This document shows positions 2,601-62,109 of a DNA stretch of 64,000 nucleotides, piece by piece (within the stretch, counting starts at the first letter, position 1; the number at the start of each line of letters is the position of its first letter). The notes beneath the pieces were generated by a model. That model did no database searches, had not been told where the DNA came from, and saw only the letters and a program-made list of their open reading frames with translations. Source of the stretch: Malacoraja senta (lineage: Eukaryota); the NCBI GenBank assembly GCA_038087875.1, contig CM075995.1:11224001-11288000 (forward strand), read 5' to 3'. A program made the position numbers and the translations under genes.

Positions 2601-2689
2601 TCCCCTCCACGTCACAACGACACAGCGGCCGGCAGCAACACAATCAGCCGCTGAGAATGACTCCTCTCCCCATTCACTCAGTTACCCTC

Positions 2690-37999: not shown

Positions 38000-39411
38000 C
38001 ATTCACAGTCTGGTCAACGCCCCGTTCTTCCCCTGCGTCCTCGCCCTCTTGTTCACTTACCTCGGGGTTATTCTCGAGCCGTGCCGGCGGAATAACCCTT
38101 GTGCAATGATTAAGGTGGTATCATATGGATCAGCCCTCTACCTGAACTGCTGTAGGCGAGGCCTTAGTTACTGTGAATGGCCCTTCCCTTCTTGGTTCAT
38201 TCCATTTTCTTCGAAATGCTCGTACATAAACTTGGTCTCCGGGCTTAATTGGTCCTTCCTCCTGGTCTGCCGCTGGCTCCTTTTGCTTTTCCTGTGCATA
38301 AATAGACTTATGTATCATAGTTAGCTGTTGCATATATTGTTTACGTTCTACTTCTAATTGCTCCAAACTTGGTCCCTTATATGTACCTCTTCGTTTGGGT
38401 ACCGGCATGGGTCTGCCGGTCAGCATTTTGTGTGGTGTGAGGTGAGTCGTTCGATTAGTTTGCATACGGCAGCTCTTCAATGCCAATGGCAGGGCATCAA
38501 TCCAATTCAATTTTGTAGTGGCACAAATCTTGTTTAGTTTGGCTTTTAATGTCCCATTGAATCGATCAATTATTACCAAGAGGTATCGTTTGCCTTGTAC
38601 TGTTTTCAACATGTTCACATAGTCAATTACCAAGTGGGTAAATGGCCCCTTGTGATCGATAGGTGTTGTTATGCCCTTTCTGACATTGTTTTGTGCACAT
38701 ACCTCACACCGGGACAAAACGTGATCTACTGAAGCCTGTAGATAAGGTGACCAGAACCCATCTTTATTACCTTTCATATGACTTCCCCCCTTGCGCAATG
38801 GTCTAACCCATGTGCTTCTGAAATGAGAATGGTCAACAGGGGTGTAGGTGCCACTAACTGGCCTTCGTCGGTGGTCCACAAGCCGTCCGTGTTTGGCTTG
38901 GCTCCCCTCTGCCTCCACACCGTTTGTTCAGCCAGCATAGCCTGGCTCTGCATTTCAATGATATCCTCCTTTGTGGGTTCTAGGTCCAGGTTTACCTGAG
39001 GTGCAATTATGGCCGATTGGAATCCAGATGCTGTTTTAGCTGCTTCATCCGCTGCATGATTTCCCTTCGTAACTATGTCGTTGCCCTTTTTGTGCGCCTG
39101 ACATTTAACAATGGCTAATGCCCTAGGCTTTGTTAAGGCCTTTATCAGGTCGGAAATGTGTTGAAAATGTTGTATGGGATCCCCATTGCTTTTCTTGAAG
39201 CCAATTTGCTTCCATACTGCACCAAATAGATGGCAGACCCCATGTGCATAAGCCGCATCTGTGTAGATATCAACTTTTTCACCTTCCATCATTTCACATG
39301 CTGCTGCTAAAGCCTTAAGCTCTGCCAGTTGGGCTGAACAAGGTTGCTGACAAGCTTCCAATCTGATGGTCTGAAACCCTGTTTGGTCCTATTGCACCAC
39401 TGCAAATCCTG
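38000..39411 (-). pseudogene. pol: ERV-A pol 3' part (RNase H, integrase)
   Basis: SAQLAELKAL, IYTD, GNHAAD; zinc-finger C-EV-C; integrase core with deletion; stops and frameshifts. Confidence 0.9.
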
Positions 39412-42400
39412 CATAGAAACATAGAAACATAGAAAATAGGTGCAGGAGTAGGCCATTCGGCCCTTCGAGCCTGCACCGCCATTCAATATGATCATGGCTG
39501 ATCATCCAACTCAGTATCCCGTACCTGCCTTCTCTCCATACCCCCTGATCCCCTTAGCCACAAGGGCCACATCTAACTCCCTCTTAAATATAGCCAATGA
39601 ACTGGCCTCAACTACCCTCTGTGGCAGAGAGTTCCAGAGATTCACCACTCTCTGTGTGAAAAAGTTTTTCCTCATCTCGGTCTTAAAGGATTTCCCCCTT
39701 ATCCTTAAGCTGTGACCCCTTGTCCTGGACTTCCCCAACATCGGGAACAATCTTCCTGCATCTAGCCTGTCCAACCCCATAAGAATTTTGTACGTTTCTA
39801 TAAGATCCCCTCTCAATCTCCTAAATTCTAGCGAGTATAAGCCAAGTCTATCCAGTCTTTCTTCATATGAAAGTCCTGACATCCCAGGAATCAGTCTGGT
39901 GAACCTTCTCTGCACTCCCTCTATGGCTATAATGTCCTTCCTCAGATTTGGAGACCAAAACTGTACGCAATGCTCCAGGTGTGGTCTCACCAAGACCCTG
40001 TACAACTGCAGTAGAACCTCCCTGCTCCTATACTCAAATCCTCTTGCTATGAAGGCCAACATACCATTCGCTTTCTTCACTGCCTGCTGCACCTGCATGC
40101 CTACTTTCAATGACTGGTGTACCATGACACCCAGGTCTCGCTGCATCTCCCCATTTCCTAATCGGCCACCATTTAGATAATAGTCTGCCTTCCCGTTTTT
40201 GCCACCAAAGTGGATAACCTCACATTTATCCACATTATACTGCATCTGCCAAACATTTGCCCACTCACCCAGCCTATCCAAGTCACCTTGCAGTCTCCTA
40301 GCATCCTCCTCACAGCCAACACTGCCCCCCAGATTAGTGCCATCCGCAAACTTGGAGATGTTGCTTTCAATTCCCTCGTCCAGATCATTAATATAAATTG
40401 TAAATAGCTGGGGTCCCAGCACTGAGCCTTGCGGTACCCCACTAGTCACTGCCTGCCATTGTGAAAAGGACCCGTTTACTCCTACTCTTTGCTTCCTGTT
40501 TGCCAGCCAGGTCTCTATCCACATCAATACTGAACCCCCAATACCGTGTGATTTAAGTTTGTAGCCTAATCTCTTATGTGGTACCTTGTCGAAAGCCTTC
40601 TGAAAGTCCAGATACAACACATCCACTATCCACTCTACTAGTTACATCCTCGAAAAATTCTATAAGATTCGTCAGACACGATTTACCTTTCGTAAATCCA
40701 TGCTGACTTTGTCCAATGATTTCACCACTTTCCAAATGTGCTGCTATCCCATCTTTAATAACTGACTCTAGCAGTTTCCCCACTACCGATGTTAGACTAA
40801 CTGGTCTGTAATTCCCCGTTTTCTCGCTCCCTCCCTTCTTAAAAAGTGGGATTACGTTTGCTACCCTCCAATCCTCAGGAACTACTCCAGAATCTAAGGA
40901 GTTTTGAAAAATTATCATTAATGCATCCACTATTTCTGGAGCTACTTCCTTAAGTACTCTGGGATGCAGCCTATCTGGCCCTGGTGATTTATCGGCCTTT
41001 AATCCATTCAATTTACCCAACACCACTTCCCGACTAACCTGGATTTCACTCAGTTCCTCCATCTCCTTTGACCCACGGCCCCCTGCTATTTCCGGCAGAT
41101 TATTTATGTCTTCCTTAGTGAAGACGGAACCAAAGTAGTTATTCAATTGGTCCGCCATATCCTTGTTCCCCATGATCAATTCACCCGATTCTGACTGCAA
41201 GGGACCTACATTTGTTTTAACTAATCTCTTTCTCTTCACATATCTATAAAAACTCTTGCAGTCAGTTTTTATGTTCCCTGCCAGTTTCCTTTCAGAATCT
41301 ATTTTCCCGTTCCTAATTAAGCCCTTTGTCCTCCTCTGTTGGTCTCTGAATTTCTCCCATGCTGCTTTTTCTGGCTAATTTGTACGCATCATCTTTTGCT
41401 TTGATACTATCCCTGATTTCCCTTGTTATCCACGGATGCACTACCTTCCCTGATTTATTCTATTGCCAAACTGGGATGAACAATTTTTGTAGTTTATCCA
41501 TGCAGTCTTGAAATGCCTTCCATTGCATATCCACCGTCAACCCTTTTAGAACTAATTGCCAGTCAATCTTGGCCAATTCATGTCTCATACCCTCAAAGTT
41601 ACCTTTCTTTAAGTTCAGAACCGTTCTGAATAAATCTAAAGTATTGGGGGGTCTAGCACTACCTAATTTTATGTATTATTATTGGTCAGTAAATATTAAA
41701 AACATGATTCAACTGATGGATAACTCCGCCCAGCAAGTAGACTGGATTGTAATGGAGAAAGAGGATTGCTCCTCTAGAAACATTGGAGCGATCCTCCTCT
41801 CTCCAATGAAATTGAATAACATAAACTATAATAAGAACCCAATTATTCATAGTACAATCCGTATTTGGAAACAAATAAAACAAAATTTAAAATTAAGAAA
41901 CTTATCACTTTTATTACCTATAGTCAATAACCCTTCGTTTAGTCCTTCTATTATAGATAAAGTTTATACACAATGGGATAGACTAGGAATTAAAACGCTT
42001 GGTGACTTGTATGAAACTGGAAAATTACTTTCATTTCAACAATTACAAATAAAATATAAACTCGGAAATAATCAATATTTTAAATACTTTCAAATATGCG
42101 ACTATTTGAAAAAATATATAAAAGATCATCATAATAACCCAGCAGATGTACTGGACGAGGCAATGCAGATAAAAGCGGAATCAGCAAACTTAATATCATA
42201 TTTGTACAATATTATCTTAAATGCACAAATACCATCTACGGAGGGTATCAGAAGAGACTGGGAACAAGAGTTAGCTATTAAAATTTCAAAGGAAAGTTGG
42301 AATGAATACTTATTAAAAGTGCATAAATGCTCGATTAATGTAAGACACACTTTAATACAATTTAAAATTTTACATAGATTATATTATTCGAAAACTAAAA

Positions 42401-43915
42401 TTCATAAAATTTTCCCAAACGTATCATCTATTTGTGATAAATGTCAATCCCAAGAAGCAACTATAGCGCACTCATTTGTCTTCTGTACAAAAATTCAAAA
42501 ATTTTGGAATGAAATTTTTGAAATCTTTACAAAGTTATTTAAAACAAGACTGATACCCAAAGCAGAATGGATTATCTTCGGAATAACGGAAGATGATCCA
42601 GAACTAAATGTGTTTCAAAAGAAATTAATGGATTATGGGTTAATAACTGGAAAAAAGCTCATTCTAAAATTTTGGAAGAAGGCTCCAATACCAACTATAA
42701 ATATGTGGATTTCAAATATGTTTGAAACATTACACCTTGAAGAGATAAGACTCCTCCTAGCAGGTAAACCAGATCACTTCCACCTGACGTGGTCTGCATT
42801 TATAGAATTATTACAAACATAGGGTGCAAAAGTACTTTAAAAAAATAAAAAATGAGGTCGGGTAAGGGGGGATGATAGTTGAAGAGTTGGTATGTCCTAT
42901 TTACGTGATGCTCAAAAAAAAAAACATTTGTTTCTCTTTTTTTCTCTTTCTCTTTTCTTTTCTTAGGGCCTATTTCTTAACTCTTTTTCTTTTTGTTTTT
43001 AATTTCGCTCTTATAGGGTCTTCGTCCTTTTTTGTTGTTACATTTTCTACACTTTTCTACACTTGCACTTTTTCCTTCACTTTCTTCTCTCTTTCAATCT
43101 TTTCTTTCTCTAGTGTAAAAAAATAAATAAAGGGAGTACATTAATTGTAAGAAGATATAAATGACGAGTATTAATGTATGTGGTTGTAATGTAATGTACT
43201 TCTAATAAATAAAAATTAAAAAAAAAAAAAAAAAACTCTTGCCCAAGGGGGCACGCACAACAAGACTGCTAACTAACCCGTCCTCATTACTCAATACCCA
43301 GTCTAGAATACCCTGCTCTCTCATTGGTTCCTCTACATGTTGGTTCAGAAAGCTATCCCGCATACATTCCAAGAAATCCTCTTCCTCAGCACCCCTGCCA
43401 ATTTGATTCACCCAATCTATATGTAGATTGAAGTCACCCATTATAACTGTTTTGCCTTTGTTGCACGCATTTCTAATTTCGTGTTTGATGCCATCCCCAA
43501 CTTCACTACTACTGCTAGGTGGCCTGTACACAACACCCACCAGCGTTTTCTGCCCCTTAGTGTTTCGCAGCTCTACCCATACCGATTCCACATCCTCCAA
43601 GCTAATGTCCTTCCTTTCCACTGCGTTAATCTCCTCTCTAACCAGCAACGCTACCCCACCTCCTTTTCCTTTCTCTCTATCCCTCCTGAATATTGAATAT
43701 CCCTGGATGTTCAGCTCCCAGCCTTGGTCACCCTGGAGCCATGTCACCGTGATCCCAACTATATCATAATCATTAATTGCTATCTGCACGTTCAACTCAT
43801 CCACCTTATTACGAATGCTCCTTGCATTGAGACACAAAGCCTTCAGGCTTGTTTTTACAATGCTCTTACCCCGTATACAATTATGTTGAAAAGTGGCTCT
43901 TTTTGATTTTTGCCC
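39412..43915 (-). mobile_element. CR1 LINE (all of ORF2) inserted in ERV-A RNase H, itself split by L1
   Basis: RT ORFs 39511-41239, endonuclease LCLNARSIRNK; ERV FVDGSCYRDHDG and AGFAVV flank the two ends. Confidence 0.95.
41623..43235 (+). mobile_element. L1-clade LINE 3' fragment
   Basis: ORF2 C-terminus GGLALPNF..CDKC..H..VFC, T-rich 3'UTR, AATAAA and poly(A); ~60 bp of host CR1 missing at the site. Confidence 0.9.
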
Positions 43916-46379
43916 ATCATGGTCCCGATAGCATGACCCATCTACAAACAGGACTTTTTTATCCTCATCATTCAATGGTTCGGAATGTAAATCCGCTCTT
44001 AATTTAGAAAGTACCGTAGTTTGACCTACGCAGTCATGGGGCTCCCCCTCATGACCAAGCGGGACATAGTTGCTCGTAGTACATCTTTGTATGGTGATAT
44101 CTGGGAATGTCAATAGCATCTGATACACTGTTATCCTAGCCGGTGTAAGTACAAACTTTCCTTTTTCCAACAGCTCTGCTACTTTATGGTGAGTATATAT
44201 GATCACAGGATATCCCATCGTCACAGACGATGCTTTCTCATAAGCATAGTACACCGCAGCCAGTCCCTGATAGCAGGGCGGATAACCCTGAGCCACCTCA
44301 TCCAATTTTGTATTATAATAGGCAACGGGTTGCTTTGCCTTTCCGACACCCGTTTCCTGTGTCAATACTGCTGCAGCATACCCCTCCTGCCTGTTGGAAA
44401 CATACAGATGAAATTTTTCATAATTAGGCAGGGCCAAGGCCGAAGCCAACTGTAACTCCTGCTTAATCGTGTTAAAAGCCATTTCTGCCTCATCATTCCA
44501 CTGCAGAACATTCTTTAGGCTTGTTTGTCCTGCTTCCTTCATTATCTTCCTTAATGGCATAACAATTTCAGCATACTCTCCAATCCAGTCCGAACTGTAT
44601 CCTGCCATTCCTAAAAACATCATCATCTGTCTTACTGTCCGAGGCTTGGGAGCTTTGATTATTGCCTCTAATAGGTTCGGCGCTATAGTTTTTATTCCTT
44701 TGGAGATTAATCGTCCAAAGTATTCTACCTGCTGCACACAAAACTGCAACTATTTCCTGGACACTTTATGGCCTCTGCACGCCAGCCTCTCTAGAAGAGT
44801 CATGGTATCCTGCTCACATTGCTCCTCAGTTTCAGAGCAAATCAACAAATCATCCACATACTGTATTAGCGTACTGTCTAAGGATATGCCTTCCAAATCC
44901 GCCTTTAGTACCTGATTGAAAACATGGGGCGAGTGTTTGAATCCCTGCAGCATCCTAGTGTAAGTGTATTGAGTACCCCTATAGGTAAAAGCAAACAAAT
45001 ACTGGCACTGGTCTGCTAAGGGCACACTGAAGAACGCTGAACACAGATCTATCACTGCAAAGTAAGCTGCCTCCGGTGGAACATTGGTCAGTAGTGTGTG
45101 CGGATTTGGAACCACCACTGGCCAATCCCTCACCACCTCGTTCACTGCTCGCAGATCATGTACTAGTCTCCACCTTGACTTGTCTGCCTTTAAAACTGGT
45201 AACAGTGGAGTGTTGCAGGGACTACGAGTTTTGATAAGTACTCCTGCCTCCACCAGACCCTGTATAGTTGGTGCTATGCCGTCCTCTGCCTCTGGCTTCA
45301 GAGGGTACTGCGGTCTCCGGGGTGAAACTGCTCCTTGTTTTAATCTTATCTCTACCGGACTTGCAGACTTTGCAGACTAATTTACCATTCCCACATCTGT
45401 GTCATGTTGTGACCACAAGCCAGATGGCAACTCGTTTAGCCTTTCCTCCTTTGCCTGACCTGCTGTTTTCAACACAGGGAGCTGTTGCTGGGGGTTAATT
45501 TCGACCTCTTTCATCATGCCCACCATATCTATATTGACTATTATCTTGATGTAATTATTGTCTTCAGACATCCATACTTTTGGAGCAATCCTTCTCCAGT
45601 TTCTAACAGTGCCTGCTTGTTTCACCAGGGGTCCCAATTCCCTGGACTGATATCCCTTATTTACAAGCAATGTCACGTGGTGTGCAGCCCCCACCACCCT
45701 GTACCATTTCTCCAGGAAGGTGTCCCATTCAATCTGCAAGGCTGCCCCTTGTTTTCCAATTATTATTGCTTCTGCTCTCAAGTGGTGCTGGCCACACGTC
45801 CCTGTACGCCACATTCTCTCCTGCTCTACATCCTGGGTTTTGTCAAAATGTATCATACAGTGCAGCTCAGACTTGGGCGGGGTTGCTTTGGGTAATATGG
45901 TTAGTACTCCCTTCTCCCACTTGTTCCATGTTTCCCAGATTTGATCTTCTATGTCCGCTATCCAAACTACGTTAGCTTTTCTAGCTTCCCGCATTATCTT
46001 TTGGGCACTCGACCTTTCCACACTCAGACCATTTCTGGTGCATTCCAATTTTAGTTCCAGTTTCAGCAGGGCGTCGCTACCTAACAAATTAATGGGAGTT
46101 CCTTGGCAATACTATCTCTTTGTTACTCATCTTTAAACTCACGGGGGTCGTGCATCGTGTTAGCTGTGTTTTTCCCGAGAACCCTACAGTTTAAACACAT
46201 TTTCCTGACATGGGAAGGTGGGAGGCATACCGTGGCTGCACACAAGTATATGTAGCTCCAGTGTCTATCATCATGGGTGTTAACTGTCCCCCCAAAATTA
46301 CCTGAACCATGGGTTCTTCTTCTGCCTCTCGGGTTATCATTGGGTAGTGTCCCTTCCCATCCGGGTTCTCTGGGCACCC
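43916..46379 (-). pseudogene. pol: ERV-A pol 5' part (protease, RT, connection)
   Basis: MIDTGATYTC protease; SPCNTPLLPV, IDLCSAFFS, QGFKHSP, QYVDDLL; frameshifts. Confidence 0.92.
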
Positions 46380-46789
46380 CTAATATCTAACATAGCGGTT
46401 CATGGGTCCAGCCGGGCTTCCAGTCGGGCCCGCTGCGGCCGTCCCTGGGGCGAGGTATTGTTCACCCTCCATTGGTACTTGTTGGTATGGTCTGGGCCAT
46501 GGACGGTTCGGACAGTCCCTTCTCACATGCCCTACCTGACCACATCCCCAGCACACCATATCAACTACCTGTTTCCTTACTGGCCTCCCTCGTCCCCCTC
46601 CTTGTAATCCTCCCCCTTGGGGGCCCCAGTCCTGTCTGGGCTGGTTTCCTGATTTATCTCGTCCCTGATAGGGCATTTGAGGAAACGTTCCCCCAAAGAC
46701 ATTTATTATTGGCATAGGATTTTCTGGCCCTTGTCTGGGTCTGGCATAGGACTCACTACGTGTTGGTACATCACTCATTTCAGCTGTTT

Positions 46790-47243
46790 CATAGATACAT
46801 AGATACATAGAAAATAGGTGCAGGAGTAGGCCATTCGGCCCTTCGAGCCTGCACCGCCATTCAATATGATCATGGCTGATCATCCAACTCAGTATCCCGT
46901 ACCTGCCTTCGCTCCATACCCCCTGATCCCTTTAGCTACAAGGGCCACATCTAACTCCCTCTTAAATATAGCCAATGAACTGGCCTCAACTACCCTCTGT
47001 GGCAGAGAGTTCCAGAGATTCACCACTCTCTGTGTGAAAAAGTTTTTCCTCATCTCGGTCTTAAAGGATTTCCCCCTTATCCTTAAGCTGTGACCCCTTG
47101 TCCTGGACTTCCCCAACATCGGGAACAATCTTCCTGCATCTAGCCTGTCCAACCCCATAAGAATTTTGTACGTTTCTATAAGATCCCCTCTCAATCTCCT
47201 AAATTCTAGCGAGTATAAGCCAAGAATTCTAGCGAGTATAAGC
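46790..47243 (-). mobile_element. CR1 3' fragment (CR1a) in gag
   Basis: (catagata)n tail; short tandem duplication at its 5' junction. Confidence 0.95.
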
Positions 47244-47348
47244 AAGTTTCAGCCGTCTCTGTTGTTACGGCGAGAATTTTCTTTCCTTTTCACGCTCTTT
47301 CCTTTTTAGTTCATCAAGTTGCATTTGTACCAGTTTTCTTTGCACCTT

Positions 47349-47856
47349 TGCACATCGGTGAGACCAAGCGGAGGCTTGGCGATCGTTTCGCCGAACACCT
47401 CCGGTCGGTCCGCAATAACCAACCTGAACTCCCGGTGGCTCAGCACTTCAACTCCCCCTCCCATTCCGTATCTGACCTCTCTGTCCTGGGTCTCCTCCAT
47501 GGCCACAGCGAGCAACACTGTAAATTGGAGGAAATGCACCTCATATTCCGCTTGGGCAGTCTACATCCTGGTGGCCTGAACATTGAATTCTCCCAATTCT
47601 GCTAGCCCTTGCTGTCCCCTCCCCTTCATCAGCCATCTGGTTGTCTCCTCCCCTCCCCCAGCCCTCGGGCTCCTCCTCCACCTTTTTCCTTTTTTCCTTT
47701 CTTCTCCCCACCCCCTATCAGTCTGAAGAAGGGTTTCGGCCCGAAACGTTGCCTATTTCCTTCGCTCCATAGATGCTGCTGCACCCGCTGAGTTTCTCCA
47801 GCATTTTTGTGTACCTTCGATTTTCCAGCATCTGCAGTTCCTTCTTTAACACTTAA
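47349..47856 (+). mobile_element. Penelope 3' fragment
   Basis: HIGETKRRLGDRFAEHL; 13-bp TSD ttctttgcacctt at 47336-47348 / 47857-47869; empty site in the sister copy near 50823. Confidence 0.93.
47723..47750 (+). ncRNA. Minimal hammerhead-ribozyme-like core
   Basis: CTGAAGA-a-GGG-tttcgg-CCC-GAAACGTT; stem I pairing poor. Confidence 0.45.
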
Positions 47857-50273
47857 TTCTTTGCACCTTCTCCTGCTGGTCTGTCAGTCTTTTCTTATCT
47901 TTGTGATATTTGTCGACTGCATGGACCAAGTAGTCCCTGAACTGGACGTGGGGTATAGTTGACAATCTCACCACCTCCTCCAGCCTGGACTTTACTTGAG
48001 AGGGCATGGCATCCACAACAGCAGCTCATTGCCGTCTATTCCTTGTTCGGTTTCAAGTCTCCACTTTTTCAACTGACCCTCTAGATACGCTGCTGGGTTC
48101 TCTGTGTCCCCCAGTGAGTCCCCCTTTAATGCATTGGGGTCCACTTTAAGCGGGTAACTGTACCTGAGGCCCTGCCATACCACCTGCCTGACTTGGTCAA
48201 ATGGTTGGCCGTCAACCAGTGGATTATTCGCTACGTCTTTTACACCTGCCTTTTCCAGGAGTTCCGCCAGTTTCGTGGTTCCTATTACTTTCACCAGTAG
48301 TGCCTTCAAATCTCCCATAGCCAATAGTCGTCCTGTGGTTTCCTCCTCAAAGGCCCTTATCCATTTTCCTGCCCCATCATATATGTTAGGCAGATATGTT
48401 TTTCAGCCCTTCGAGGTCCTGTGTCCCCCAAGGAACATACTGTGTCTGTCCTGCTCACAAGCAACGGCATCACTCTACTCTCCCGCACCTGTCTTGTTTC
48501 TACTTCCCACTCTGGGGATTCTATTTGTAAACTTTGCCATGCTAATCTTTCTCGGGCCGCTTCTCTTCTCTCCTTCTCTAGGCGTGCTCCCAATTTCTTT
48601 AATCTAATCTCCAACTGATCCATGGACTCCTTTATCCTTCTTCTATGCTCCCTTTCTTCCATATCTCTCTTATCGCTTTCCGATTCTGATTTTACTTCGG
48701 AGTCACGTGAGTGATTCTGTGAAGAAGCCCCGCCAGTGCGCATGCGTGTCATATCGTCGTTCGCATTGCGAAGCACCGGACTGGCAGGGCATCGCTCCTG
48801 CCGGCGGTAAGTTTAAAACTTCAGGTAAGTTTTATATCACTTACCAGGTTTTGAATTTCTTGCAGGAACCTCTTTTCACAGAGGTATCCTGCTAGAAATT
48901 GGGCGAATTCCGGCGAGTGAACCGGCTATGGGCTGTGGGGAGACGCCTAGGACAGGGCTGCTTACTGTGTGACAGTGCAGGCCTGTACGAGAGGCCGTGC
49001 CAGCAGCACCTGGGACAGGGCTGCTTAATGTCTCCCTGTTGGAGGGGGAGACCATCACGGGTCAGTGTCCTGCTGACGCCGAATCTGTCACAGCGCCGGC
49101 CTACGGGAGAGCCCACGCCAGCAGAGCCTGGGACAGGGATGCTAATGTGTGACAGCGCCGGCCTGGAGAAGAGGTCGTGCCAGCAGTGCCTGGGACAGGG
49201 CTGCTTAATGTCTCCCTCTTTGAAGAGGAGAGCATGCCGGGTCAGTGTAATTCTGACGCCGAGGCTGAGGGTATAGCCGTGGAGCATACCCCAAGGCATG
49301 AAGGGCACGTGTCAGAGGTATCATTTCCTGACAACAAAGTTTGCCATCCCAACAGAATGTTCCATCCTGGTATAGGGCCATTGGGGGCCGTATCAGCGCA
49401 GGTATCCCAGGGGCCTGTGTCAGCACCTGTTTAGGGCTGCCTATGAATCGCCCTCTCTAAGGAGGTGAGCGCGAAAGGTCAGATGTGACTTCAGATTCTA
49501 AAGATGTCCATGGAACATACTGGAGCACATGTGTGCCGGCAGTGAACAGCGCTATCAGGGGGATATAAGAGACAGCCGCCGAATCTTCTATTCAGGTAAG
49601 GTCTATTCAACAGCAAAAACCTGGGACGAAGCAAAAGCTGTCGGACCAATCAAGACCAAAGGCGGGCAAAGGTTCATCGGTTCAGAACGTACCCCATGCC
49701 TTCATCGGCAGTCAGCGGTTCACTGAAGCTGGTGGCAGCATGACAGCTGGGCAGAGGTTCCACGCACCCTACCAGTCCTACTCAACAAGGTAGGTCTGGC
49801 AATTCCGAAACATGGGTAAGTGGCTACTCACAAGTTGGTAATAGTTACACTTGTTTGTACAGCACACAAAGGATAAAGGCATTGTCATCTGCTTAGAGGC
49901 ATCTAACCATGTAAAACAGCACAATACTAGCATTCCAAGCAAGTTTGGAATTAGGGCCAGAATTGTAGTTTTCAAGACAGGCTCGGAAATCGGGCCAGAG
50001 TTATCGTGCGAAGCACCCAGAGAGTGAAAAATGGAGAATGTCGTTTAACTCGCATATGAACTTTCTTTACTGACTAACAACGGATTCATAAGGGTCTCAA
50101 AGATCCATTCTATGCAGTTCCCATTACAGGGATCATCGGAGACATTGGAAATTATCAAAAATTATCAAAAATATAACTGTACTAATAACAATAAAACATT
50201 GCAAATTGGGATAAACTATTTCCCCAGGTTATTTAACTAATTAGTAAAATCGGTGTTTGGACTCAGAGTTCAA

Positions 50274-53256
50274 AAACATAGAAACATAGAAACATAGAAA
50301 ATAGGTGCAGGAGTAGGTCATTAGGCCCTTCGAGCCTGCACCGCCATTCAATATGATCATGGCTGATCATCCAACTCAGTATCCCGTACCTGCCTTCTCT
50401 CCATACCCACTGATCCCTTTAGCCACAAGGGCCACATCTAACTCCCTCTTAAATATAGCCAATGAACTGGCCTCAACTACCCTCTGTGGCAGAGAGTTCC
50501 AGAGATTCACCACTCTCTGTGTGAAAAAGTTTTTCCTCATCTCGGTCTTAAAGGATTTCCCCCTTATCCTTAAGCTGTGACCCCTTGTCCTGGACTTCCC
50601 CAACATCGGGAACAATCTTCCTGCATCTAGCCTGTCCAACCCCATAAGAATTTTGTACGTTTCTATAAGATCCCCTCTCAATCTCCTAAATTCTAGCGAG
50701 TATAAGCCAAGAATTCTAGCGAGTATAAGCGAGTTTCAGCCGTCTCTGTTGTTACGGCGAGAATTTTCTTTCCTTTTCACGCTCTTTCCTTTTTAGTTCA
50801 TCAAGTTGCATTTGTACCAGTTTTCTTTGCACCTTCTCCTGCTGGTCTGTCAGTCTTTTCTTATCTTTGCGATATTTGTCGACTGCATGGACCAAGTAGT
50901 CCCTGAACTGGACGTGGGGTATAGTTGACAATCTCACCACCTCCTCCAGCCTGAACTTTACTTGAGAGGGCATGGCATCCACAACATCAGCTCATTGCCG
51001 TCTATTCCTTGTTCGGTTTCAAGTCTCCACTTTTTCAACTGACCCTCTAGATACGCTGCTGGGTTCTCTGTGTCCCCCAGTGAGTCCCCCTTTAATGCAT
51101 TGGGGTCCACTTTAAGCGGGTAACTGTACCTGAGGGCCTGCCATACCACCTGCCTGACTTGGTCAAATGGTTGGCCGTCAACCAGTGGATTATTCGCTAC
51201 GTCTTTTACACCTGCCTTTTCCAGGAGTTCCGCCAGTTTCGTGGTTCCTATTACTTTCACCAGTAGTGCCTTCAAATCTCCCATAGCCAATAGTCGTCCT
51301 GTGGTTTCCTCCTCAAAGGCCCTTATCCATTTTCCTGCCCCATCATATATGTTAGGCAGATATGTTTTTCAGCCCTTCGAGGTCCTGTGTCCCCCAAGGA
51401 ACATACTGTGTCTGTCCTGCTCACAAGCAACGGCATCACTCTACTCTCCCGCACCTGTCTTGTTTCTACTTCCCACTCTGGGGATTCTATTTGTAAACTC
51501 TACCATGCTGATCTTTCTCGGGCCGCTTCTCTTCTCTCCTTCTCTAGGCGTGCTCCCAATTTCTTTAATCTAATCTCCACCTGATCCATGGACTCCTTTA
51601 TCCTTCTTCTATGCTCCCTTTCTTCCATATCTCTCTTATCGCTTTCCGATTCTGATTTTACTTCGGAGTCACGTGAGTGATTCTGTGAAGAAGCCCCGCC
51701 AGTGCGCATGCGTGTCATATCGTCGTTCGCATTGCGAAGCACCGGACTGGCAGGGCATCGCTCCTGCCGGCGGTAAGTTTAAAACTTCAGGTAAGTTTTA
51801 TATCACTTACCAGGTTTTGAATTTCTTGCAGGAACCTCTTTTCACAGAGGTATCCTGCTAGAAATTGGGCGAATTCCGGCGAGTGAACCGGCTATGGGCT
51901 GTGGGGAGACGCCTAGGACAGGGCTGCTTACTGTGTGACAGTGCAGGCCTGTACGAGAGGCCGTGCCAGCAGCACCTGGGACAGGGCTGCTTAATGTCTC
52001 CCTGTTGGAGGGGGAGACCATCACGGGTCAGTGTCCTGCTGACGCCGAATCTGTCACAGCGCCAGCCTACGGGAGAGCCCACGCCAGCAGAGCCTGGGAC
52101 AGGGATGCTAAATGTGTGACAGCGCCGGCCTGGAGAAGAGGTCGTGCCAGCAGTGCCTGGGACAGGGCTGCTTAATGTCTCCCTCTTTGAAGAGGAGAGC
52201 ATGCCGGGTCAGTGTAATTCTGACGCCGAGGCTGAGGGTATAGCCGTGGAGCATACCCCAAGGGATGAAGGGCACGTGTCAGAGGTATCATTTCCTGACA
52301 ACAAAGTTTGCCATCCCAACAGAATGTTCCATCCTGGTATAGGGCCATTGGGGGCCGTATCAGCGCAGGTATCCCAGGGGCCTGTGTCAGCACCTGTTTA
52401 GGGCTGCCTACGAATCGCCCTCTCTAAGGAGGTGAGCGCGAAAGGTCAGATGTGACTTCAGATTCTAAAGATGTCCATGGAACATACTGGAGCACATGTG
52501 TGCTGGCAGTGAACAGCGCTATCAGGGGGATATGAGAGACAGCCGCCGAATCTTCTATTCAGGTAAGGTCTATTCAACAGCAAAAACCTGGGACGAAGCA
52601 AAAGCTGTCGAACCAATCAAGACCAAAGGCGGGCAAAGGTTCATCGGTTCAGAACGTACCCCATGCCTTCATCGGCAGTCAGCGGTTCACTGAAGCTGGT
52701 GGCAGCATGACAGCTGGGCAGAGGTTCCACGCACCCTACCAGTCCTACTCAACAAGGTGGGTCTGGCATTTCCGAAACATGGGTAAGTGGACCACTCACA
52801 AGTTGGTAATAGTTACACTTGTTTGTACAGCACACAAAGGATAAAGGCATTGTCATCTGCTTAGAGGCATCTAACCATGTAAAACAGCACAATACTAGCA
52901 TTCCAAGCAAGTTTGGAATTAGGGCCAGAATTGTAGTTTTCAAGACAGGCTCGGAAATCGGGCCAGAATTATCGTGCGAAGCACCCAGAGAGTGGCCTGT
53001 TCATTATGAAAAATGGAGAATGTCGTTTAACTCGCATATGAACTTTCTTTACTGACTAACAACGGATTCATAAGGGTCTCAAAGATCCATTCTATGCAGT
53101 TCCCATTACAGGGATCATCGGAGACATTGGAAATTATCAAAAATTATCAAAAAATATAACTGTACTAATAACAGTAAAACATTGCAAATTGGGATAAACT
53201 ATTTCCCCAGGTTATTTAACTAATTAGTAAAATCGGTGTTTGGACTCAGAGTTCAA
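50274..53256 (-). repeat. Tandem duplicate (~2983 bp) of CR1 fragment + gag 5' part + ERV-A leader
   Basis: Near-identical to 46790-50273 apart from the Penelope insert, a short indel near 50026/52995 and scattered substitutions. Confidence 0.95.
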
Positions 53257-54452
53257 AAACATAGAAACATAGAAACATAGAAAATAGGTGCAGGAGTAGG
53301 CCATTCGGCCCTTCGAGCCTGCACCGCCATTCAATATGATCATGGCTGATCATCCAACTCGGTATCCCGTACCTGCCTTCTCTCCATACCCCCTGATCCC
53401 TTTAGCCACAAGGGCCACATCTAACTCCCTCTTAAATATAGCCAATGAACTGGCCTCAACTACCCTCTGTGGCAGAGAGTTCCAGAGATTCACCACTCTC
53501 TGTGTGAAAAAGTTTTTCCTCATCTCGTTCTTAAAGGATTTCCCCCTTATCCTTAAGCTGTGACCCCTTGTCCTGGACTTCCCCAACATCGGGAACAATC
53601 TTCCTGCATCTAGCCTGTCCAACCCCATAAGAATTTTGTACGTTTCTATAAGATCCCCTCTCAATCTCCTAAATTCTAGCGAGTATAAGCCAAGTCTATC
53701 CAGTCTTTCTTCATATGAAAGTCCTGACATCCCAGGAATCAGTCTGGTAAACCTTCTCTGCACTCCCTCTATGGCTATAATGTCCTTCCTCAAATTTGGA
53801 GACCAGAACTGTACGCAATACTCCAGGTGTGGTCTCACCAAGACCCTGTACAACTGCAGTAGAACCTCCCTGCTCCTATACTCAAATCCTTTTGCTATGA
53901 AATTGTGAGGAATGGGTTAATAGGTATAGTTGATTGAGACAAGAACCCATTGTCTAGTAGGGAGTATAGTAGGGAGTATAGAACGGAGAATAAGGGGAGT
54001 AAAGGACAAGTACAAATGGTGACTTTTCAAGGATGAGAACAGAGAAGATAGCAACAGCCCAGCATAGAACTAGGGTAAAGGTCAGAAGAAACACTCAGTG
54101 CGCATGGGCAATGAACTTACATGAATATGTACACACACCCACTATGACAAGATGCCTCATTTAAATGCACATGCGATGCATGATATGGGAGGTGTCTTTG
54201 ACGTCGGGTGGACGTTCCAGGACGTTCTCGTGGGAATGTGGGCTTTATGTTATGATTGGAAGAAGCACAATGGGGAGGGATGAGGGTGTGACAATGATAC
54301 CCATTAAATGTATAAAGATGGAAGTCATCCCGATCCTCGGTGTGTCTTGACAGGGGAGACACCCAACTCTGCAGACTTGCTAATAAATAAACTTGTTTCT
54401 CTACATTCTCTACGCATCGTGAGTGTTCTTTCACAACTTGCGCCTGACAGCT

Positions 54453-54472
54453 TGGGGGCTCGTCCTCGGGAT
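54453..54472 (+). promoter_or_regulatory. Primer binding site, tRNA-Pro type
   Basis: TGGGGGCTCGTCC(TC)GGGAT versus canonical TGGGGGCTCGTCCGGGAT. Confidence 0.85.
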
Positions 54473-54826
54473 CCCCACTCCGGCCAGCTGGCGACAGTAT
54501 ACGGAAGAAGGGACGGTGCACCCCGTTGATTTCAACGGTCCCAGACCCCTAGATTGTCGTCAGCAGTTTGAGCGAGTGATATCCAGGACCAGAGATTAGA
54601 GAAACAAGTGGGAGTTCTGATCCGGAGGAAGATCGGGGGGAAATTCGCGAAGGAGCCAAATCGAGTGATTCTTGTGCACAAGACCCGGGTAAGAAAACTG
54701 ACAATTAAGTACTACTCGGGCGATTAAATAAGACCTTGTGGATACCGCCGTGAAGAATTCAGGGGTCTGTACGGGCAAGGCAGGAAAGGCGGGAAAATAG
54801 ATCGGGGGGAAATTCCGATCGGGAGG

Positions 54827-54967
54827 ATGGGCAATGAAAACGGAAAGCCCACAAGGGAGGGGAAGGGCGGTAAGCCCGACCCCAGCATTCTGCCTGATAG
54901 TCCGTTGGGGCGAATGCTGAGCCTCTGGGGGCAGAGAAATACCCAGGAAATTGGAAGACAAAAATGA
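54827..54967 (+). pseudogene. gag: ERV-B gag 5' stub (MGNENGK..LPDSPLGRMLSLWG, 46 aa)
   Basis: MG start and PDSPLG.ML..W matrix motif of class I gags. Confidence 0.65.
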
Positions 54968-57234
54968 TTTGATTCTGTTATATTGAGTTTTAATACATGT
55001 AAAAGATGTTGTATTTATTGAAGTAAGAATGGAACGAATGTGATTTGTGTGTAAAAACCGGTTTGGAATGAAAGAGGAAGTTTATATTTGTGATAATTAT
55101 TTTGTTTATTGTATAAGAGTAAGTAAGTAAGTTTTATTAAAATCAAAAATGTTCACTGGAGGTAGGTGTATGTTCCTTTAAATAAATCAGGTCATGGTGA
55201 AAGGCGCCGAACAGCTGTAAGATAACGATTAATGTTTGTATCCTCGTAAGAAGGGGAAGTTGTGAAACCAGCTTTTGGTTTTTCTGATACTTTTAGATTT
55301 CTAGTCAGTAAAGATAATTTGGAAAATTGTTACTAGTGCTAGGAATTGGACATTTAAAATAGTGGTGAATATGGATTGAAATAATTGGAAATAAGTTAAT
55401 TGGTAAACATTCAAGTTTAGAAAGAAAGGAGAGAGAGGCAGTTAGAAGATAACAGAAGTAGAAAAACGACAGGCGTGAAAGTAATAAAGCAGGAGGAGTC
55501 AGTGGAAGATTTTTGCAAGGAGGCTAGAATATTTGAGAAGCAAGAAATTGAGTTTAGAATTAGAAAGAAGGCATACCAGAAAGGATTAAAGTTGGAAGCA
55601 TTGGGATAAAGTGATGAGACTGCTTTAAAGAGAAAAGAGAAGGACAGACACGGATTATCCCTTGGGGCACCCATAAACTGAAAGGGCTAAAAAATACCTC
55701 ACCCTATATCCCTGATGGGGGAGGAAATGGATTAGGGCTTTGGAGGAGGAGAACGTGGGACGATTATTGATCATGGAAGATTTGAAGGCACTGTTGGTAA
55801 AAGTGATAGGAACCACTAAAGTGACAGAACTGAAGATGGATGGTATAAACTGATACGAACAATGTAACAAGCAATGGCATACTGTTTGACACAGTCAGGC
55901 AGAGGGTATGGCAGACCCTCAGACAATGTTACCCACTTAAGAGGAACCCCAAGGAACAAGGGGAGATACAGAAGGAAAGGCAAATAGCCTATCTGGAAAA
56001 CCAGCTGAAAAGGTGGAGAGTTGATTGATGAACATTATATTATGAACAGGCAGAGGGCATGGCAGGCCCTCAGACAATGTAATCCAGCAGCCTATCTGGA
56101 AAACCAGCTGAAAAGGTGGAGAGTTGATTGATGAACATTATATTATGAACTACTGTGGTGGATGTCATTCTTCTTAAAGTCAAGCAGATTCAGCGAACAG
56201 TTGGTCTCTGCGGTCGAGAAATATCGCAGAGATAGGAAAAAGACTTGCAAACCAGCAGGAGCAGTTGTTGTCAATAAACAATGGACCTAAGTGAGTCCTA
56301 TGACGGAACCAAGCAGGGCCAGAGAATTACATGCCAATAATGAATGTCTTTGGGGTACGTTTCCTCAAAAAGTCCTATCAGGAGTGAAATTAATCTGGAT
56401 ATAAGCCCTAACAGGACTGGGGTCCCCAAGAGAGAAAGGGATTTAAAGGAGGATTTGTTGATATTGTTCCATAAGTAACAAGCGATGTAAGAGAGAGAGA
56501 GATTAAAAATAAAAAAAATACTTCAGAATGTAGGACAGAGTATGATAACCTCGGGAAAAGGCAGGATATAGTTCAGACTAGATTAGGTATAAGCCCTGTA
56601 GTGTCGTTTATGATGAATAAGGTAATTAAGAGGTTTGGTAGACCTACAGAAATCAGCTTTGACAACGGATTGTTTTCATTTAGGGAGTAGCTAAGTTGGC
56701 GATAGAGACCCTTAGAGTAAAATACACATTTGGGTTTGTAACACCTGCAGTCACAGGCATGGTGGAAAGAATAAATGGAACATTGAAGGTTAATATAAAT
56801 AAGATTTGTTTAATTACAAAGTTGAATTGGATCGATGCCCTGCCATTGGCACTGAAGAGATGTTGCATGCAAACTAACCAAGCAGGTAGCACAATGGAGA
56901 GGTCCCTACAAGAGACCGAGTTTGGAACAGTTAAAGATAGAATTTTAAAAGTATATGAAACAGTTAATTATGATATACAAGTCTATTTATGAACAGGAAA
57001 AGTAAAAGCTGTTGGAGGTGGACCAGGAGGAAGGACCCTTTAAACCTGAAGACAAGGTGTATGTATGAGTTTTCTAAACTACCGACCGATGTTCAGGTAG
57101 AAGGTTGATATACCTGGTACCATTTCAATAATACCTGAGGGCTGTCCCGCAGGTATGAATAGATAATAGCCCTGAGGTAAGTGAACAGGAGGAAAAGAGA
57201 TGTGAGAAAAGAGTAGAGTTTGAACAAGAACGTT

Positions 57235-58165
57235 GTTTGACATCAGTGGTGGGCAAAATAATGGAAAGCATACTTAAGACAATATATAAGAATAGGGTAG
57301 GATTAGGAAGAATTAGCATGGATTTGTGATTGTGATGTTTGACTAATCTTGAATTTTTTGAAAAGGTTATTATGGAAATTGATGAGGGTAAAGTGATGGA
57401 TGTTGACTAGATGAACTTCAGTAAGGCCTTTGACAAGGTTCAATAAGGAAATAAGGTTGGTTAAGAAGGGTTAGTAAGGAATAGCAAGATGGATTAAAAA
57501 GTGGCTGTATGGGAGATGTCAGAGAGCAATGGTGGATGGATGTTTGTCAGGTTGGAGGTAAGTGACCAGAGGGGTACCTCGGGGATGTGTGTTGGGTCCA
57601 CTGTTGTTTGTCATGTGAATCAATAATCTGGATGTTGGTGTGGTAAAATAGATTAATAAGTATGTAGATGATACTAAGATAGGTGGTGTTGTGAATAATG
57701 AAGTAGATTTAAAAGTGTACAGAGAGATTTAGGTCATTTGGAAGAATGGGTTGAAACATGACAGATGGGTTTAATGTTGATAAGTATGAGATGATACAAA
57801 TCAAAATTGAATGTACATGGTAAATGATTGTGAATTGAGGAATGAAGTTGAATAGAGGGATCTAGGAATAACTGTGCATGGTTCCCTGAAGGTGGAATTT
57901 CATGAAGATAGGATGGTAAAGAAAGATTTTGGTGTGTTGGCCTTTATAAATCAGAGCATTGTGTATAGAAGTTGGGTTGTAATGTTAAATTGTACAAGGT
58001 ATTGGTGAGGTCAATTGTGGAGTATGGTGTATAATTTTGGTAGGCATAATTATAGGAAAAGGTCAACAAAATAGAGAGAGAGTACAGAGGAGATCAATTA
58101 GAATGTTGACTGGGTTTCAGCAACTAAGACACAGAGAAAGGTTGAACAAGTTAGGTCTTTATTAT
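57235..58165 (+). mobile_element. Diverged CR1 RT fragment carried inside ERV-B
   Basis: Collinear with the reverse complement of about 32490-33470; no CR1 tail or TSD. Confidence 0.85.
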
Positions 58166-58681
58166 TTAGGAACGATAGAAGGGGTCCCAACAAATACAAG
58201 GGAATGATGTATTCCTAAGGAACTATTTACTGGCAGTATCTCGTTCTATTACAGAATTAAGAACCAAGGGGCTGCTGGCACAGAGTCCCCATCTCGACTT
58301 CCAATCCATTCTGTGAAAGCGGGGGACTGGGATCTTGTAACATCATGGAAGGAAGAAAAGCTGCAACCTAAGTGGACTGGACCCTACCTGGTGTTACTGA
58401 CCACGGAGACAGCAGTACGAACAAAAGAAAAAGGGTGGACACACGCAAGCCGATTTAAGGGTCCTGTGGAGGCCCCACCAAACAATATCAGCCCGTGGAC
58501 TGTGCGCAAAGGAGAGGAACCATTGACTTTAATATTTAACAAGAACCCGCGGGAAAAATGAAGATTTCGTGTTGATGGGTCGTGTGTTGGGTGGTTACCC
58601 AACTATGTAAGCATACAGAGTGTTCAAATGCAGGAAAGTGGAAGGATGTGCAGATAGAACAGGGAGAATGAGCCTAAGGAT

Positions 58682-59842
58682 TTGAAGATAATGATAGTAG
58701 CAGGAGAAACAGAATTAAGGCAATTATATGAGGAGGGAATACCTACAGGAGGAAAGGGAGCCAACACCTGGCTTGCCTGGATGATGTACACGGCCAGGAG
58801 TATGCAACACACCAATTGCTACGCCTGTGCCGGAGCTAAGCCTCAGCTGGTTCCAGAACCATTTCCCTTGAATTGGGATAGGACACCTGGGGCTATGCCA
58901 TGTATACTACAGCTATTCACGAATCCCATCCTACCAAAGGATGCGACCTGCCAGAGTTATCATTACCTATTCCCGGCTAGCAACAACAATACAAAGGGCC
59001 GAAGGACAGACCCACGACCTCCTCCATTTAGAACTCCCCTTGGGGAGGAGGGATTTGAGTGCTATACCAGATATAACCCAGATGGACAGGAAATGGGGAA
59101 GGTGCTGAACTGCAATCAGACGTATAACATAACGGCTGAGGAACAGGGGCCACTGTTCAAAAGCTCCTGGCTGAGAAAGCAGATAGTCAGTAGAGCCGAT
59201 GTCTGGTGGTGGTGCGGGGAGAATACCCTGTGGCCCCGGTTACCAGGGTCATGGACGGGAACCTGTACCCTCACACAACTGATGATGCCCTTCACCATAG
59301 CAGTAGAACATGCTGTAGAACTCAATGAAGGAAGCCAACGACAAAAGAGAGGGGTGAGAGGATCATTCGACACACACATATATATAGATGCGATAGGGGT
59401 GCCAAGAGGGGTACCCGATGAATTCAAAGCCAGAAACCAGATAGCTGCGGGCTTTGAGTCCATACTCTTCTGGTGGTCCACACTTAATAAAAATGTGGAC
59501 TGGATCAACTACCTATACTACAATCAACAACGCTTTATAAATTACACTCGAGATGCGGTTGAAGGATTAGCGGAACAACTGACAGATACCAGCCTAATGG
59601 CCTGGCAAAATCGCATGGCCTTAGACATGCTACTGGCTGAGAAGGGAGGGGTGTGTGTAATGTTTGGGGAACAATGTTGCACCTTCATCCCCAACAACAC
59701 TGCTCCTGATGGGTCAGTGTCGAGAGCCCTAGCAGGTCTCACCTCCCTGTCTATCGAATTTAAAACACAGTATGACCAGCGAGAGGAAGATAAGGAGGCG
59801 AAGATTCTGCTGCTAGCATTAGAAAACGGGCAGATAGTCTAA
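58682..59842 (+). CDS. env: ERV-B env ORF lacking signal peptide and membrane anchor (386 codons)
   Basis: CYAC, RQKR, GVPDEFKARNQIAAGFES, WQNRMALDMLLAEKGG, CVMFGEQCC; no TM helix; the ATG at 58558 is followed by a stop at codon 6 and is in a different frame. Confidence 0.75.
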   Translation: MKIMIVAGETELRQLYEEGIPTGGKGANTWLAWMMYTARSMQHTNCYACAGAKPQLVPEPFPLNWDRTPGAMPCILQLFTNPILPKDATCQSYHYLFPASNNNTKGRRTDPRPPPFRTPLGEEGFECYTRYNPDGQEMGKVLNCNQTYNITAEEQGPLFKSSWLRKQIVSRADVWWWCGENTLWPRLPGSWTGTCTLTQLMMPFTIAVEHAVELNEGSQRQKRGVRGSFDTHIYIDAIGVPRGVPDEFKARNQIAAGFESILFWWSTLNKNVDWINYLYYNQQRFINYTRDAVEGLAEQLTDTSLMAWQNRMALDMLLAEKGGVCVMFGEQCCTFIPNNTAPDGSVSRALAGLTSLSIEFKTQYDQREEDKEAKILLLALENGQIV

Positions 59843-62109
59843 ATCAAAGGTTGCGTAGCAAAAGAAAAAGTGTGGATTGTGAGGAATGGGTTAATAGGTA
59901 TAGTTGATTTAGACAAGAACCCATTGTCTAGTAGGGAGTATAGTAGGGAGTATAGAACGGAGAATAAGGGGAGTAAAGGACAAGTACAAATGGTGACTTT
60001 TCAAGGATGAGAACAGAGAAGATAGCAACAGCCCAGCATAGAACTAGGGTAAAGGTCAGAAGAAACACTCAGTGCGCATGGGCAATGAACTTACATGAAT
60101 ATGTACACACACCCACTATGACAAGATGCCTCATTTAAATGCACATGCGATGCATGATATGGGAGGTGTCTTTGACGTCGGGTGGACGTTCCAGGACGTT
60201 CTCGTGGGAATGTGGGCTTTATGTTATGATTGGAAGAAGCACAATGGGGAGGGATGAGGGTGTGACAATGATACCCATTAAATGTATAAAGATGGAAGTC
60301 ATCCCGATCCTCGGTGTGTCTTGACAGGGGAGACACCCAACTCTGCAGACTTGCTAATAAATAAACTTGTTTCTCTACATTCTCTACGCATCGTGAGTGT
60401 TCTTTCACAACTTGCGCCTGACAAAAGCTAACATACCATTCGCTTTCTTCACTGCCTGCTGCACCTGCATGCCTACTTTCAATGACTGGTGTACCATGAC
60501 ACCCAGGTCTCGCTGCATCTCCCCTTTTCCTAATCGGCCACCATTTAGATAATAGTATGCTTTTCTGTTTTTGCCACCAAAGTGGATAATCTCACATTTA
60601 TCCACATGAAACTGCATCTGCCAAACATTTGCCCACTCACCCAGCCTATCCAATCACCTTGCAGTCTCCTAGCATCCTCCTCACAGCTAACACTGCCCCC
60701 CAGCTTAGTGTCATCCGCAAACTTGGAGATGTTGCCTTCAATTCCCTCATCCAGTTCATTAATATAAATTGTAAATAGCTGGGGTCACAGCACTGAGCCT
60801 TGCGGTACCCCACTAGTCACTGCCTGCCATTGTGAAAAGGACCCGCTTACTCCTACTCTTTGCTTCCTGTTTGCCAGCCAGTTCTCTATCCACATCAATA
60901 CTGAACCCCCAATACCGTGTGATTTAAGTTTGTATCCTAATCCCTTATGTGGTACCTTGTCGAAAGCCTTCTGAAAGTCCAGATACAACACATCCACTGG
61001 TTCTCCCCTATCCACTCTACTAGTTACATCCTCGAAAAATTCTATAAGATTCGTCAGACACGATTTACCTTTCGTACATCCATGCTGACTTTGTCCAATG
61101 ATTTCACCACTTTCCAAATGTGCTGCTATCCCATCTTTAATAACTGACTCTAGCAGTTTCCCCACTACCGATGTTAGACTAACTGGTCTGTAATTCCCCG
61201 TTTTCTCTCTCCCTCCCTTCTTAAAAAGTGGGGTTACGTTTGCTACCCTCCAATCCTCAGGAACTATTCCAGAATCTAAAGAGTTTTGACAAATTATCAC
61301 TAATGCATCCACTATTTCTGGAGCTACTTCATTAATACTCTGGGATGCAGCCTATCTGGCCCTGGTGATTTATCGGCCTTTAATCCATTCAATTTACCCA
61401 ACACCACTTCCCAACTAACCTGGATTTCACTCAGTTCCTCCATCTCCTTTGACCCGCGGTCCCCTGCTATTTCCGGCAGATTATTTATGTCTTCCTTAGT
61501 GAAGACGGAACCAAAGTAGTTATTCAATTGGTCCGCCATATCCTTGTTCCCCATGATCAATTCACCTGTTTCTGACTGCAAGGGACCTACATTTGTTTTA
61601 ACTAATCTCTTTCTCTTCACATATCTATAGAAACTTTTGCAGTCAGTTTTTATGTTCCCTGCCAGTTTTCTTTCATAATCTATTTTACTTTTCCTAATTA
61701 AGCCCTTTGTCCTCCTCTGCTTGTCTCTGAATTTCTCCCAGTCCTCTGGTGTGCTGCTTTTTCTGGCTAATTTGTACGCATCATCATTTGCTTTGATACT
61801 ATAATGGGGGTACTATACTCATACCCTCAAAGTTACCTTTCTTTAAGTTCAGAACCATTGTTTCTGAATTAACAATGTCACTCTCCATCCTAATGAAGAA
61901 CTCAACCATATTATGGTCACTCTTGCCCAAGGGGGCACGCACAACAAGACTGCTAACTAACCCTTCCTCATTACTCAATACCCAGTCTAGAATAGCCTGC
62001 TCTCTCGTTGGTTCCTCTACATGTTGGTTTAGATAACTATCCCGCATACATTCCAAGAAATCCTCTTCCTCAGCACCCCTGCCAATTTGATTCACCCAAT
62101 CTATATGTA

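Follow-up and report, generated by a model that had tools for sequence, protein, structure and literature searches.

A probable recKoRV-like non-autonomous retroelement in the skate Malacoraja senta, with a middle from a second retroviral lineage and a CR1 fragment

We analysed a window of 64,000 nucleotides from the skate Malacoraja senta (assembly GCA_038087875.1, contig CM075995.1, positions 11,224,001 to 11,288,000 of the forward strand), focusing on a long terminal repeat (LTR) element at positions 53,904-60,423 of this window. The element probably belongs to a non-autonomous LTR family with multiple copies, built like the koala recombinant recKoRV, in which ends from one endogenous retrovirus (ERV), termed ERV-B, enclose a middle derived from another, ERV-A, and from a CR1 long interspersed nuclear element (LINE). 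An initial annotation, made from the sequence alone, had proposed a non-autonomous multi-copy lineage whose decay predated this insertion. This proposal is supported by variant contigs in public sequencing runs, by an asymmetric loss of cytosines in the middle and by substitutions evenly distributed over codon positions.

Structure of the element and of its insertion site

The two LTRs of the element differ at a single position (53,936/59,910), as first described, and the order of the internal parts also agreed with the initial annotation, albeit with refined bounds and coordinates (Table 1). The primer-binding-site-like stretch presumably corresponds to a tRNA-Pro site, judging from its motif. 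No gag, pol or env gene is intact: reverse transcriptase (RT) and RNase H are absent from the element, and its longest frames starting with ATG encode 77 aa (integrase piece) and 383 aa (an env without membrane anchor). Searches returned no Rfam match, no tRNA and no phage record.

Table 1. Coordinates of the element, its parts and the adjoining sequence in the window
Feature	Position	Strand	Basis
Decayed ERV-A provirus with gag, pol and env, broken up by CR1 copies; outside the element, reference for its middle	36200..53259 (ends approximate)	-	
Host CR1 LINE, 3' part; insertion target, adjoins the ERV-A 5' region	53260..53903	-	sibling-copy identity
Left target-site copy	53900..53903	+	3/4 bases match right copy
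5' LTR, 546 bp, TG...CA; TATA-like 54,311, AATAAA 54,382	53904..54449	+	
Leader, presumed packaging region	54450..54826	+	C 21%, CpG observed/expected 0.96
Primer-binding-site-like stretch, broken after 13 bases	54453..54472	+	sequence inspection
Short ATG frame, 46 codons; possibly the N-terminal stub of an arm-family gag	54827..54967	+	position
AT-rich, C-poor filler (C 7%)	54965..55420	+	variant contigs in runs X1, X4, X8
Eroded ERV-A-type gag pieces	55421..56452	+	72-79% nt to ERV-A
Eroded ERV-A-type integrase, core to C-terminus	56544..57200	+	aa similarity
CR1 RT fragment, sense, no 3' tail, C-eroded	57235..58165 (end approximate)	+	CR1 in window
ERV-B integrase C-terminal end, frameshift in first third	58151..58558	+	Pfam PF18697, L. 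erinacea P0146
ERV-B env remnant, 5' part mostly deleted; open frame of 394 codons at 58,658-59,842	58559..59842	+	Pfam PF00429
Polypurine-tract-like stretch, at the expected place	59860..59875	+	sequence inspection
3' LTR, 546 bp, TG...CA	59878..60423	+	
Right target-site copy	60424..60427	+	sequence inspection

The pol proteins of ERV-A and ERV-B share only 34% identity in RT and 29% in the integrase and, therefore, represent two lineages. Together with the affinities of the two integrase pieces, this supports the heterologous retroviral origin that had been proposed for the middle. Affinities were assessed piece by piece through pairwise identities rather than trees, because the pieces are short and frameshifted. 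The gag pieces at 55,637-55,952 (72% nucleotide identity to the neighbouring ERV-A), 56,189-56,267 and 56,290-56,452 (79%) have their counterparts at 51,422-51,100, 50,907-50,830 and 46,757-46,597, respectively, and a 62-bp duplication lies within the gag region (55,986-56,047 / 56,089-56,150). Only a weak match to ERV-A was found for 55,400-55,660 (z 2.9), while the filler, compared with four references in the window, never exceeded a z of 1. The ERV-A-type integrase was correctly recognised and ends at 57,200 as reported, but it starts at about 56,544 instead of 56,640. It carries stops, frameshifts and deletions of 44 and 41 nucleotides, shares 59-63% amino acid identity with an ERV-A-like protein from Hemitrygon (P0179) and has many teleost relatives, whereas its comparison with ERV-B pol gave a single match of 39 aa. 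The CR1 fragment that follows shares 82% identity with the CR1 at 32,476-33,468. About five bases at its 5' join are common to ERV-A and CR1, and at its 3' join the homologies to CR1 and ERV-B overlap at 58,151-58,167, at the protein level only. Altogether, the 3.2-kb middle of the element has diverged by 18-32%.

The 3' arm, comprising a second, different integrase end and the env remnant, is assigned to ERV-B by sequence similarity. The integrase end starts at about 58,151 and matches Pfam MLVIN_C (PF18697, E 9e-10); the best of its 19 protein matches was a pol protein from the related skate Leucoraja erinacea (P0146), with 66% identity over 136 aa across the frameshift. In the ERV-B pol cluster, six of the 15 listed members are 882-aa open reading frames (ORFs) from L. 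erinacea with RT, RNase H and integrase domains, and the five of them compared with P0146 were 99.5-99.8% identical to it. The near-identity of these long pol ORFs indicates that ERV-B, a class I-like ERV family, expanded recently in L. erinacea. As annotated, these 882-aa proteins begin inside the RT, so that they may be incomplete. No ERV-B pol was found in metagenome or viral contigs. Of the recently active helper that had been postulated, the recent expansion of a family matching the 3' arm is supported in L. erinacea, while a helper with exactly these LTRs and this primer-binding site in the present genome is not established.

The env remnant retains a furin site and a CX6CC motif but no membrane span. 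Compared with its relatives, it lacks the greater part of its 5' region as well as about 73 residues, among them the membrane span, and its hydropathy maximum is 0.99, against 2.84 in the relatives. Its closest clusters, among 120 listed of 674 matches, consist of Logan proteins with 96% and 86% identity over part of the query. The top one contains the L. erinacea env P0121 (90% identity over 277 aa), and the same 90% amino acid identity was obtained for P0121/P0133. The env search in viral contigs retrieved one distant provirus (L001, 42%). The 394-codon frame at 58,658-59,842 has neither an anchor nor an evident signal peptide; it is still open probably as a result of recent capture, and a soluble product is possible.

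The element interrupts a CR1 copy on the minus strand that resumes in register at 60,424 and extends to about 61,800. The left side of this CR1 (53,300-53,901) shares 93.7-98.7% identity with three siblings on the same strand, and its right side 93.7-97.0% with the same siblings; with 97-98.7% identity to its closest siblings, the target is a young copy. The target duplication is 4 bp long, with only three of the four bases agreeing, and the CR1 is in register on both sides. The odd base adjoins the 5' LTR and is identical to the base preceding the 3' LTR. The mismatch may stem from an unprocessed viral end that was kept, from conversion between the LTRs, from polishing or from a point mutation. 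Both this imperfect duplication and the ruin of env were overlooked in the initial annotation.

The divergence between the LTRs is 1/546 (0.18%, 95% interval up to 1.0%). At the mutation rate reported for the epaulette shark, 7e-10 per base per generation (PMC10587355), which is the only shark rate found, this corresponds to about 1.3 million generations, with a range of 3.3e4-7.3e6. The middle decayed long before the element was inserted here, and the insertion also postdates a young CR1, but at the shark rate the description of the element as very young is not established in years.

Strand-specific cytosine loss and copies in public sequencing runs

The CR1 piece has lost cytosines in a strand-specific manner. 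C was replaced at 38 of 91 positions and G at 30 of 258 (p 6e-9); the excess concerned both C>T relative to G>A (20/91 vs 19/258) and C>A relative to G>T (13/91 vs 8/258), and the 38 C lost compare with 10 gained. A similar asymmetry was observed in the ERV-A-type integrase piece (C 44/82 vs G 16/99, p 1e-7). In ordinary CR1 controls, C losses and gains were balanced in all six comparisons, one pair being used in both directions. A three-way comparison over about 300 bases assigned 30 private changes to the element and 10 and 7 to the other two sequences, the element having lost 12 of the 34 shared C. Substitutions in the CR1 piece are evenly spread over the codon positions (29/39/34), as in a frame without selection. 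The C content is 7% in the filler and the CR1 piece, 13-15% in the ERV-A pieces and 21-23% in the leader, the ERV-B integrase end and the env frame.

Genomic DNA, being double-stranded, should decay almost equally on both strands; therefore, the middle was most likely eroded during copying through RNA, and the strand-specific C loss suggests erosion during repeated rounds of reverse transcription. Candidate causes are a low supply of deoxyguanosine triphosphate (dGTP) in minus-strand synthesis and selection for purine-rich RNA. Transcription-associated deamination could give C>T, though not readily C>A. The sense strands of ordinary CR1 copies (32,476-34,491 and others) are also C-poor, with 11% C and 31% G, and this bias may extend to every reverse-transcribed element of the host.

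Two other causes of the C loss were rejected. CpG decay does not account for it, since 34 of 85 non-CpG C were lost in the CR1 piece. APOBEC3-type editing would act in the opposite direction: in the accessible text of the source, its signature is given as an excess of plus-strand G-to-A (PMC3511177), and here the shares of C>T and C>A exceed that of G>A.

Sequences matching 54,950-58,200 were listed in 24 runs from 12 studies carrying six organism labels. The share of query words found was 0.64-0.65 in two runs, 0.20-0.25 in six and small in 16; no RNA run was among the 24. The contigs of four of these runs (X1, X3, X4 and X8) were aligned to 53,840-59,877 at 90% likeness, and 32 of about 52,000 records were displayed individually. 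The filler, gag and integrase pieces are covered in X1, X4 and X8, where the same variants recur in many distinct contigs: 16, 24 and 21, respectively, for the variant at 55,682, 11, 10 and 8 for that at 56,229, and 9, 3 and 16 for that at 56,913. One diploid locus would not give so many contigs sharing single-site variants. In the sparse run X3 (16 records), pieces of the LTR, gag, integrase, eroded CR1, ERV-B integrase end and env were found at depths of 2.5-4. The CR1 piece there (57,291-57,559) differs at two of its 269 bases, and the integrase and env deletions of the window are spanned by records 11 and 15.

In X1, single contigs reach depths of 904 and 3,063 while others lie at 17-66. 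A rough depth ratio of the middle to the low-depth pieces (about 50-1,200-fold) would point to some tens or hundreds of copies, without serving as a copy number. The leader (54,446-54,849) has little or no cover in X3, X4 and X8, possibly because other species carry a different leader; this is a lead only, as no contig joins across. Contigs of X1 also contain more deletion variants, at 59,130-59,317 and 55,601-56,755, which suggest subfamilies. The junction pattern was found in no metagenome contig. The eroded parts and their defects are, thus, shared and repeated, and their linkage in this order is seen in this assembly only.

Possible origins of the element and its surroundings

If the element is a recombinant of this kind, its cis-acting ends (LTRs, primer site, leader and polypurine tract) would derive from ERV-B, and its middle would be an older passenger from a fish ERV-A lineage, carrying the CR1 fragment. 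It would be transcribed from its own LTR and, having no functional coding capacity, would need ERV-B proteins acting in trans for packaging, reverse transcription and integration, as general retroviral biology leads one to expect. The joins between ERV-A and ERV-B would most likely have arisen by template switching at short overlaps. The middle would have decayed in earlier rounds of copying and not at this locus, and the strand-specific C loss would be the trace left by changes that became fixed while the element was single-stranded or in RNA-DNA form.

Several observations weigh against this interpretation. Among the 32 displayed records, no contig extends across a junction by 31 bases in both directions; record 4 of X1 does span the 5' CR1 junction, but its left side comprises only about 21 bases. 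Summed contig depth is not a copy number, and X1 is possibly the source sample. The assignment of the LTRs and leader to ERV-B is assumed from their position. The leader showed no folding signal, being no better than its shuffles (z -0.5), and all z values for the leader, filler, CR1 piece and control lay between -0.7 and 0.3. The gag piece showed no significant C-versus-G asymmetry (21/58 vs 24/87, p 0.28), while among the ordinary CR1 controls one C-versus-G comparison reached p 0.035 and two C>A versus G>T comparisons p about 0.04. Finally, the frame at 54,827, described initially as the element's own gag stub, does exist, but its identity as gag, which we presume from its position and a resemblance, was not confirmed by searches: phmmer on representatives gave only four repeat-rich unrelated matches, the top Atlas score was 0.81, a low recognition, and Pfam and PDB gave nothing credible.

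The way in which the CR1 fragment was acquired admits two routes within the same family, and we give them equal weight. Instead of being captured as LINE RNA, the fragment may have reached an ERV-A provirus through the normal genomic insertion of a 5'-truncated CR1 and later have lost its tail at the recombination between ERV-A and ERV-B, a variant of the recombinant interpretation that does not exclude it. Genomic insertion is consistent with the frequency of CR1 insertions into ERV-A in the window, with the location of the 5' join just past the end of the ERV-A integrase and with a 3' join that coincides with the start of ERV-B homology, so that one event could strip the tail. However, the corresponding intermediate, an ERV-A in which a CR1 at this position still has its tail, was not seen, and a template switch to CR1 RNA packaged in the same particle would also fit the short overlaps at the two ends. 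The tail-less sense CR1 piece was, thus, rightly noticed at the outset, but the capture of CR1 RNA proposed with it is not established, since genomic insertion explains the piece equally well.

The remaining alternatives dispense with a mobile recombinant family. Tandem or segmental DNA duplication could have multiplied the middle without retrotransposition; contig depth cannot separate modes of amplification, and the window itself contains a tandem duplication of ERV-A 5' sequence (2.87 kb, 98.6%). We consider this unlikely, as the copy analysed here is bounded by LTRs and a target duplication and sits cleanly within a CR1, and DNA duplication does not produce strand-biased substitutions. A single old nested locus of ERV-B, ERV-A and CR1 debris, decayed in place and with LTRs homogenised by gene conversion or polishing, would account for the odd left target base, which equals the base before the 3' LTR, and a high-copy LTR is prone to polishing toward its commonest form. 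Yet the youth of the target CR1 contrasts with the divergence of the middle, the mostly non-CpG, strand-asymmetric C loss is unlike that in neighbouring CR1 copies, and the eroded pieces are present as numerous variants, also in runs under other organism labels, which makes this explanation very improbable. The least probable is an assembly chimera, in which noisy reads joined ERV-B arms to unrelated repeats. The region is dense in repeats, an assembly gap lies elsewhere in the window and the displayed records include no bridging contig, but independent contigs reproduce the eroded sequence at 98-99% (X3 records 11-13), which read noise would not do, both flanks continue one CR1 in register, and parts of all segments occur at similar depth in X3.

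Other features of the window lie outside the element. The duplicated ERV-A 5' region, which includes a CR1 3' end, occupies 47,857-50,711 and 50,823-53,694, with a third partial unit at 46,790-47,348; it is either a true duplication or the product of uncollapsed haplotypes. Between the protease region and the RT of ERV-A (45,377-46,111, minus strand) lies an insert of about 240 aa with no Pfam match at E 0.1, in which we take two His-containing motifs to be reminiscent of a 2H phosphoesterase. A 436-codon frame in the opposite orientation (41,512-42,822, plus strand) lies inside ERV-A pol and presumably represents the C-terminus of a non-LTR element. Tandem arrays with units of 17 bp, 8 bp and 34 bp were observed at 2,634-3,620, 17,330-17,560 and 21,210-21,520, and a gap of 200 N lies at 4,034-4,233.

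Known recombinant elements and significance

The closest known counterpart is recKoRV1, a 6.9-kb recombinant of KoRV and PhER in the koala (PMC6112702, PMC5696478). As described in the accessible parts of these sources, it consists of a KoRV 5' LTR, leader and truncated gag, followed by 4.9 kb of degraded PhER and then by a truncated env and LTR, and it occupies many loci (PMC5696478). The skate element, of 6.5 kb, resembles it in having the ends of a young ERV around several kilobases of an older, degraded and dissimilar element, in its probable multi-locus occurrence and in its presumed reliance on the integrase of the young virus; microhomology has also been described at some recKoRV1 breakpoints. 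It differs in that its middle has no LTR of its own and contains recognisable gag and integrase pieces of a second lineage plus a LINE fragment, occurs in runs of several organism labels and shows strand-specific C erosion, and in that its 3' arm retains an integrase end. Moreover, insertional polymorphism has been demonstrated for recKoRV in the koala, whereas the skate element is known from one assembly and contigs.

Other non-autonomous elements share part of this organisation, as far as the accessible text of two sources describes them. Mouse VL30 is likewise a class I non-autonomous element with stop-riddled gag and pol remnants, a primer site and a polypurine tract, 4-bp target duplications, often identical LTRs and mobilisation in trans (PMC4859993, PMC6466679); unlike the skate element, with its helper-like 3' arm and env remnant, it is described with its own LTRs and without env. 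ETn/MusD and a small ERV-beta4 group also comprise non-coding elements mobilised by a related coding ERV, the latter group having helper-like LTRs and internal ends around a middle without retroviral homology, but they belong to class II (beta), and that source describes no second retroviral lineage or LINE piece in them (PMC6466679). The open literature, a scope that left out most subscription papers, Repbase and Dfam, yielded no account of the skate family or of any ERV recombinant with a LINE piece and C erosion; an automatic repeat model of the family may already be available. Elements of this kind are known, while the three-source middle, its spread over organism labels and its strand-specific erosion were not found in the open literature.

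More tentatively, and with some doubt, the middle could be a long-lived passenger that has outlasted its ERV-A host and several speciations and was re-armed with the ends of an active ERV-B. Free of coding constraint, it would then record the raw mutational bias that reverse transcription shows in the germ line of skates (sense C to T or A, as a shortage of dGTP in minus-strand synthesis would give), and the three classes of C content (7%, 13-15% and 21-23%) would date successive captures. The strand-specific erosion is the feature most worth following. The CR1 fragment, set against ordinary CR1 copies of the same genome, offers a neutral reporter of the mutation bias of reverse transcription. 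The recombinant interpretation would extend the recKoRV route, in which an invading ERV is disabled and an old element remobilised, from a marsupial to a cartilaginous fish, and suggests that recombinants of this type can become large persistent families instead of transient by-products.

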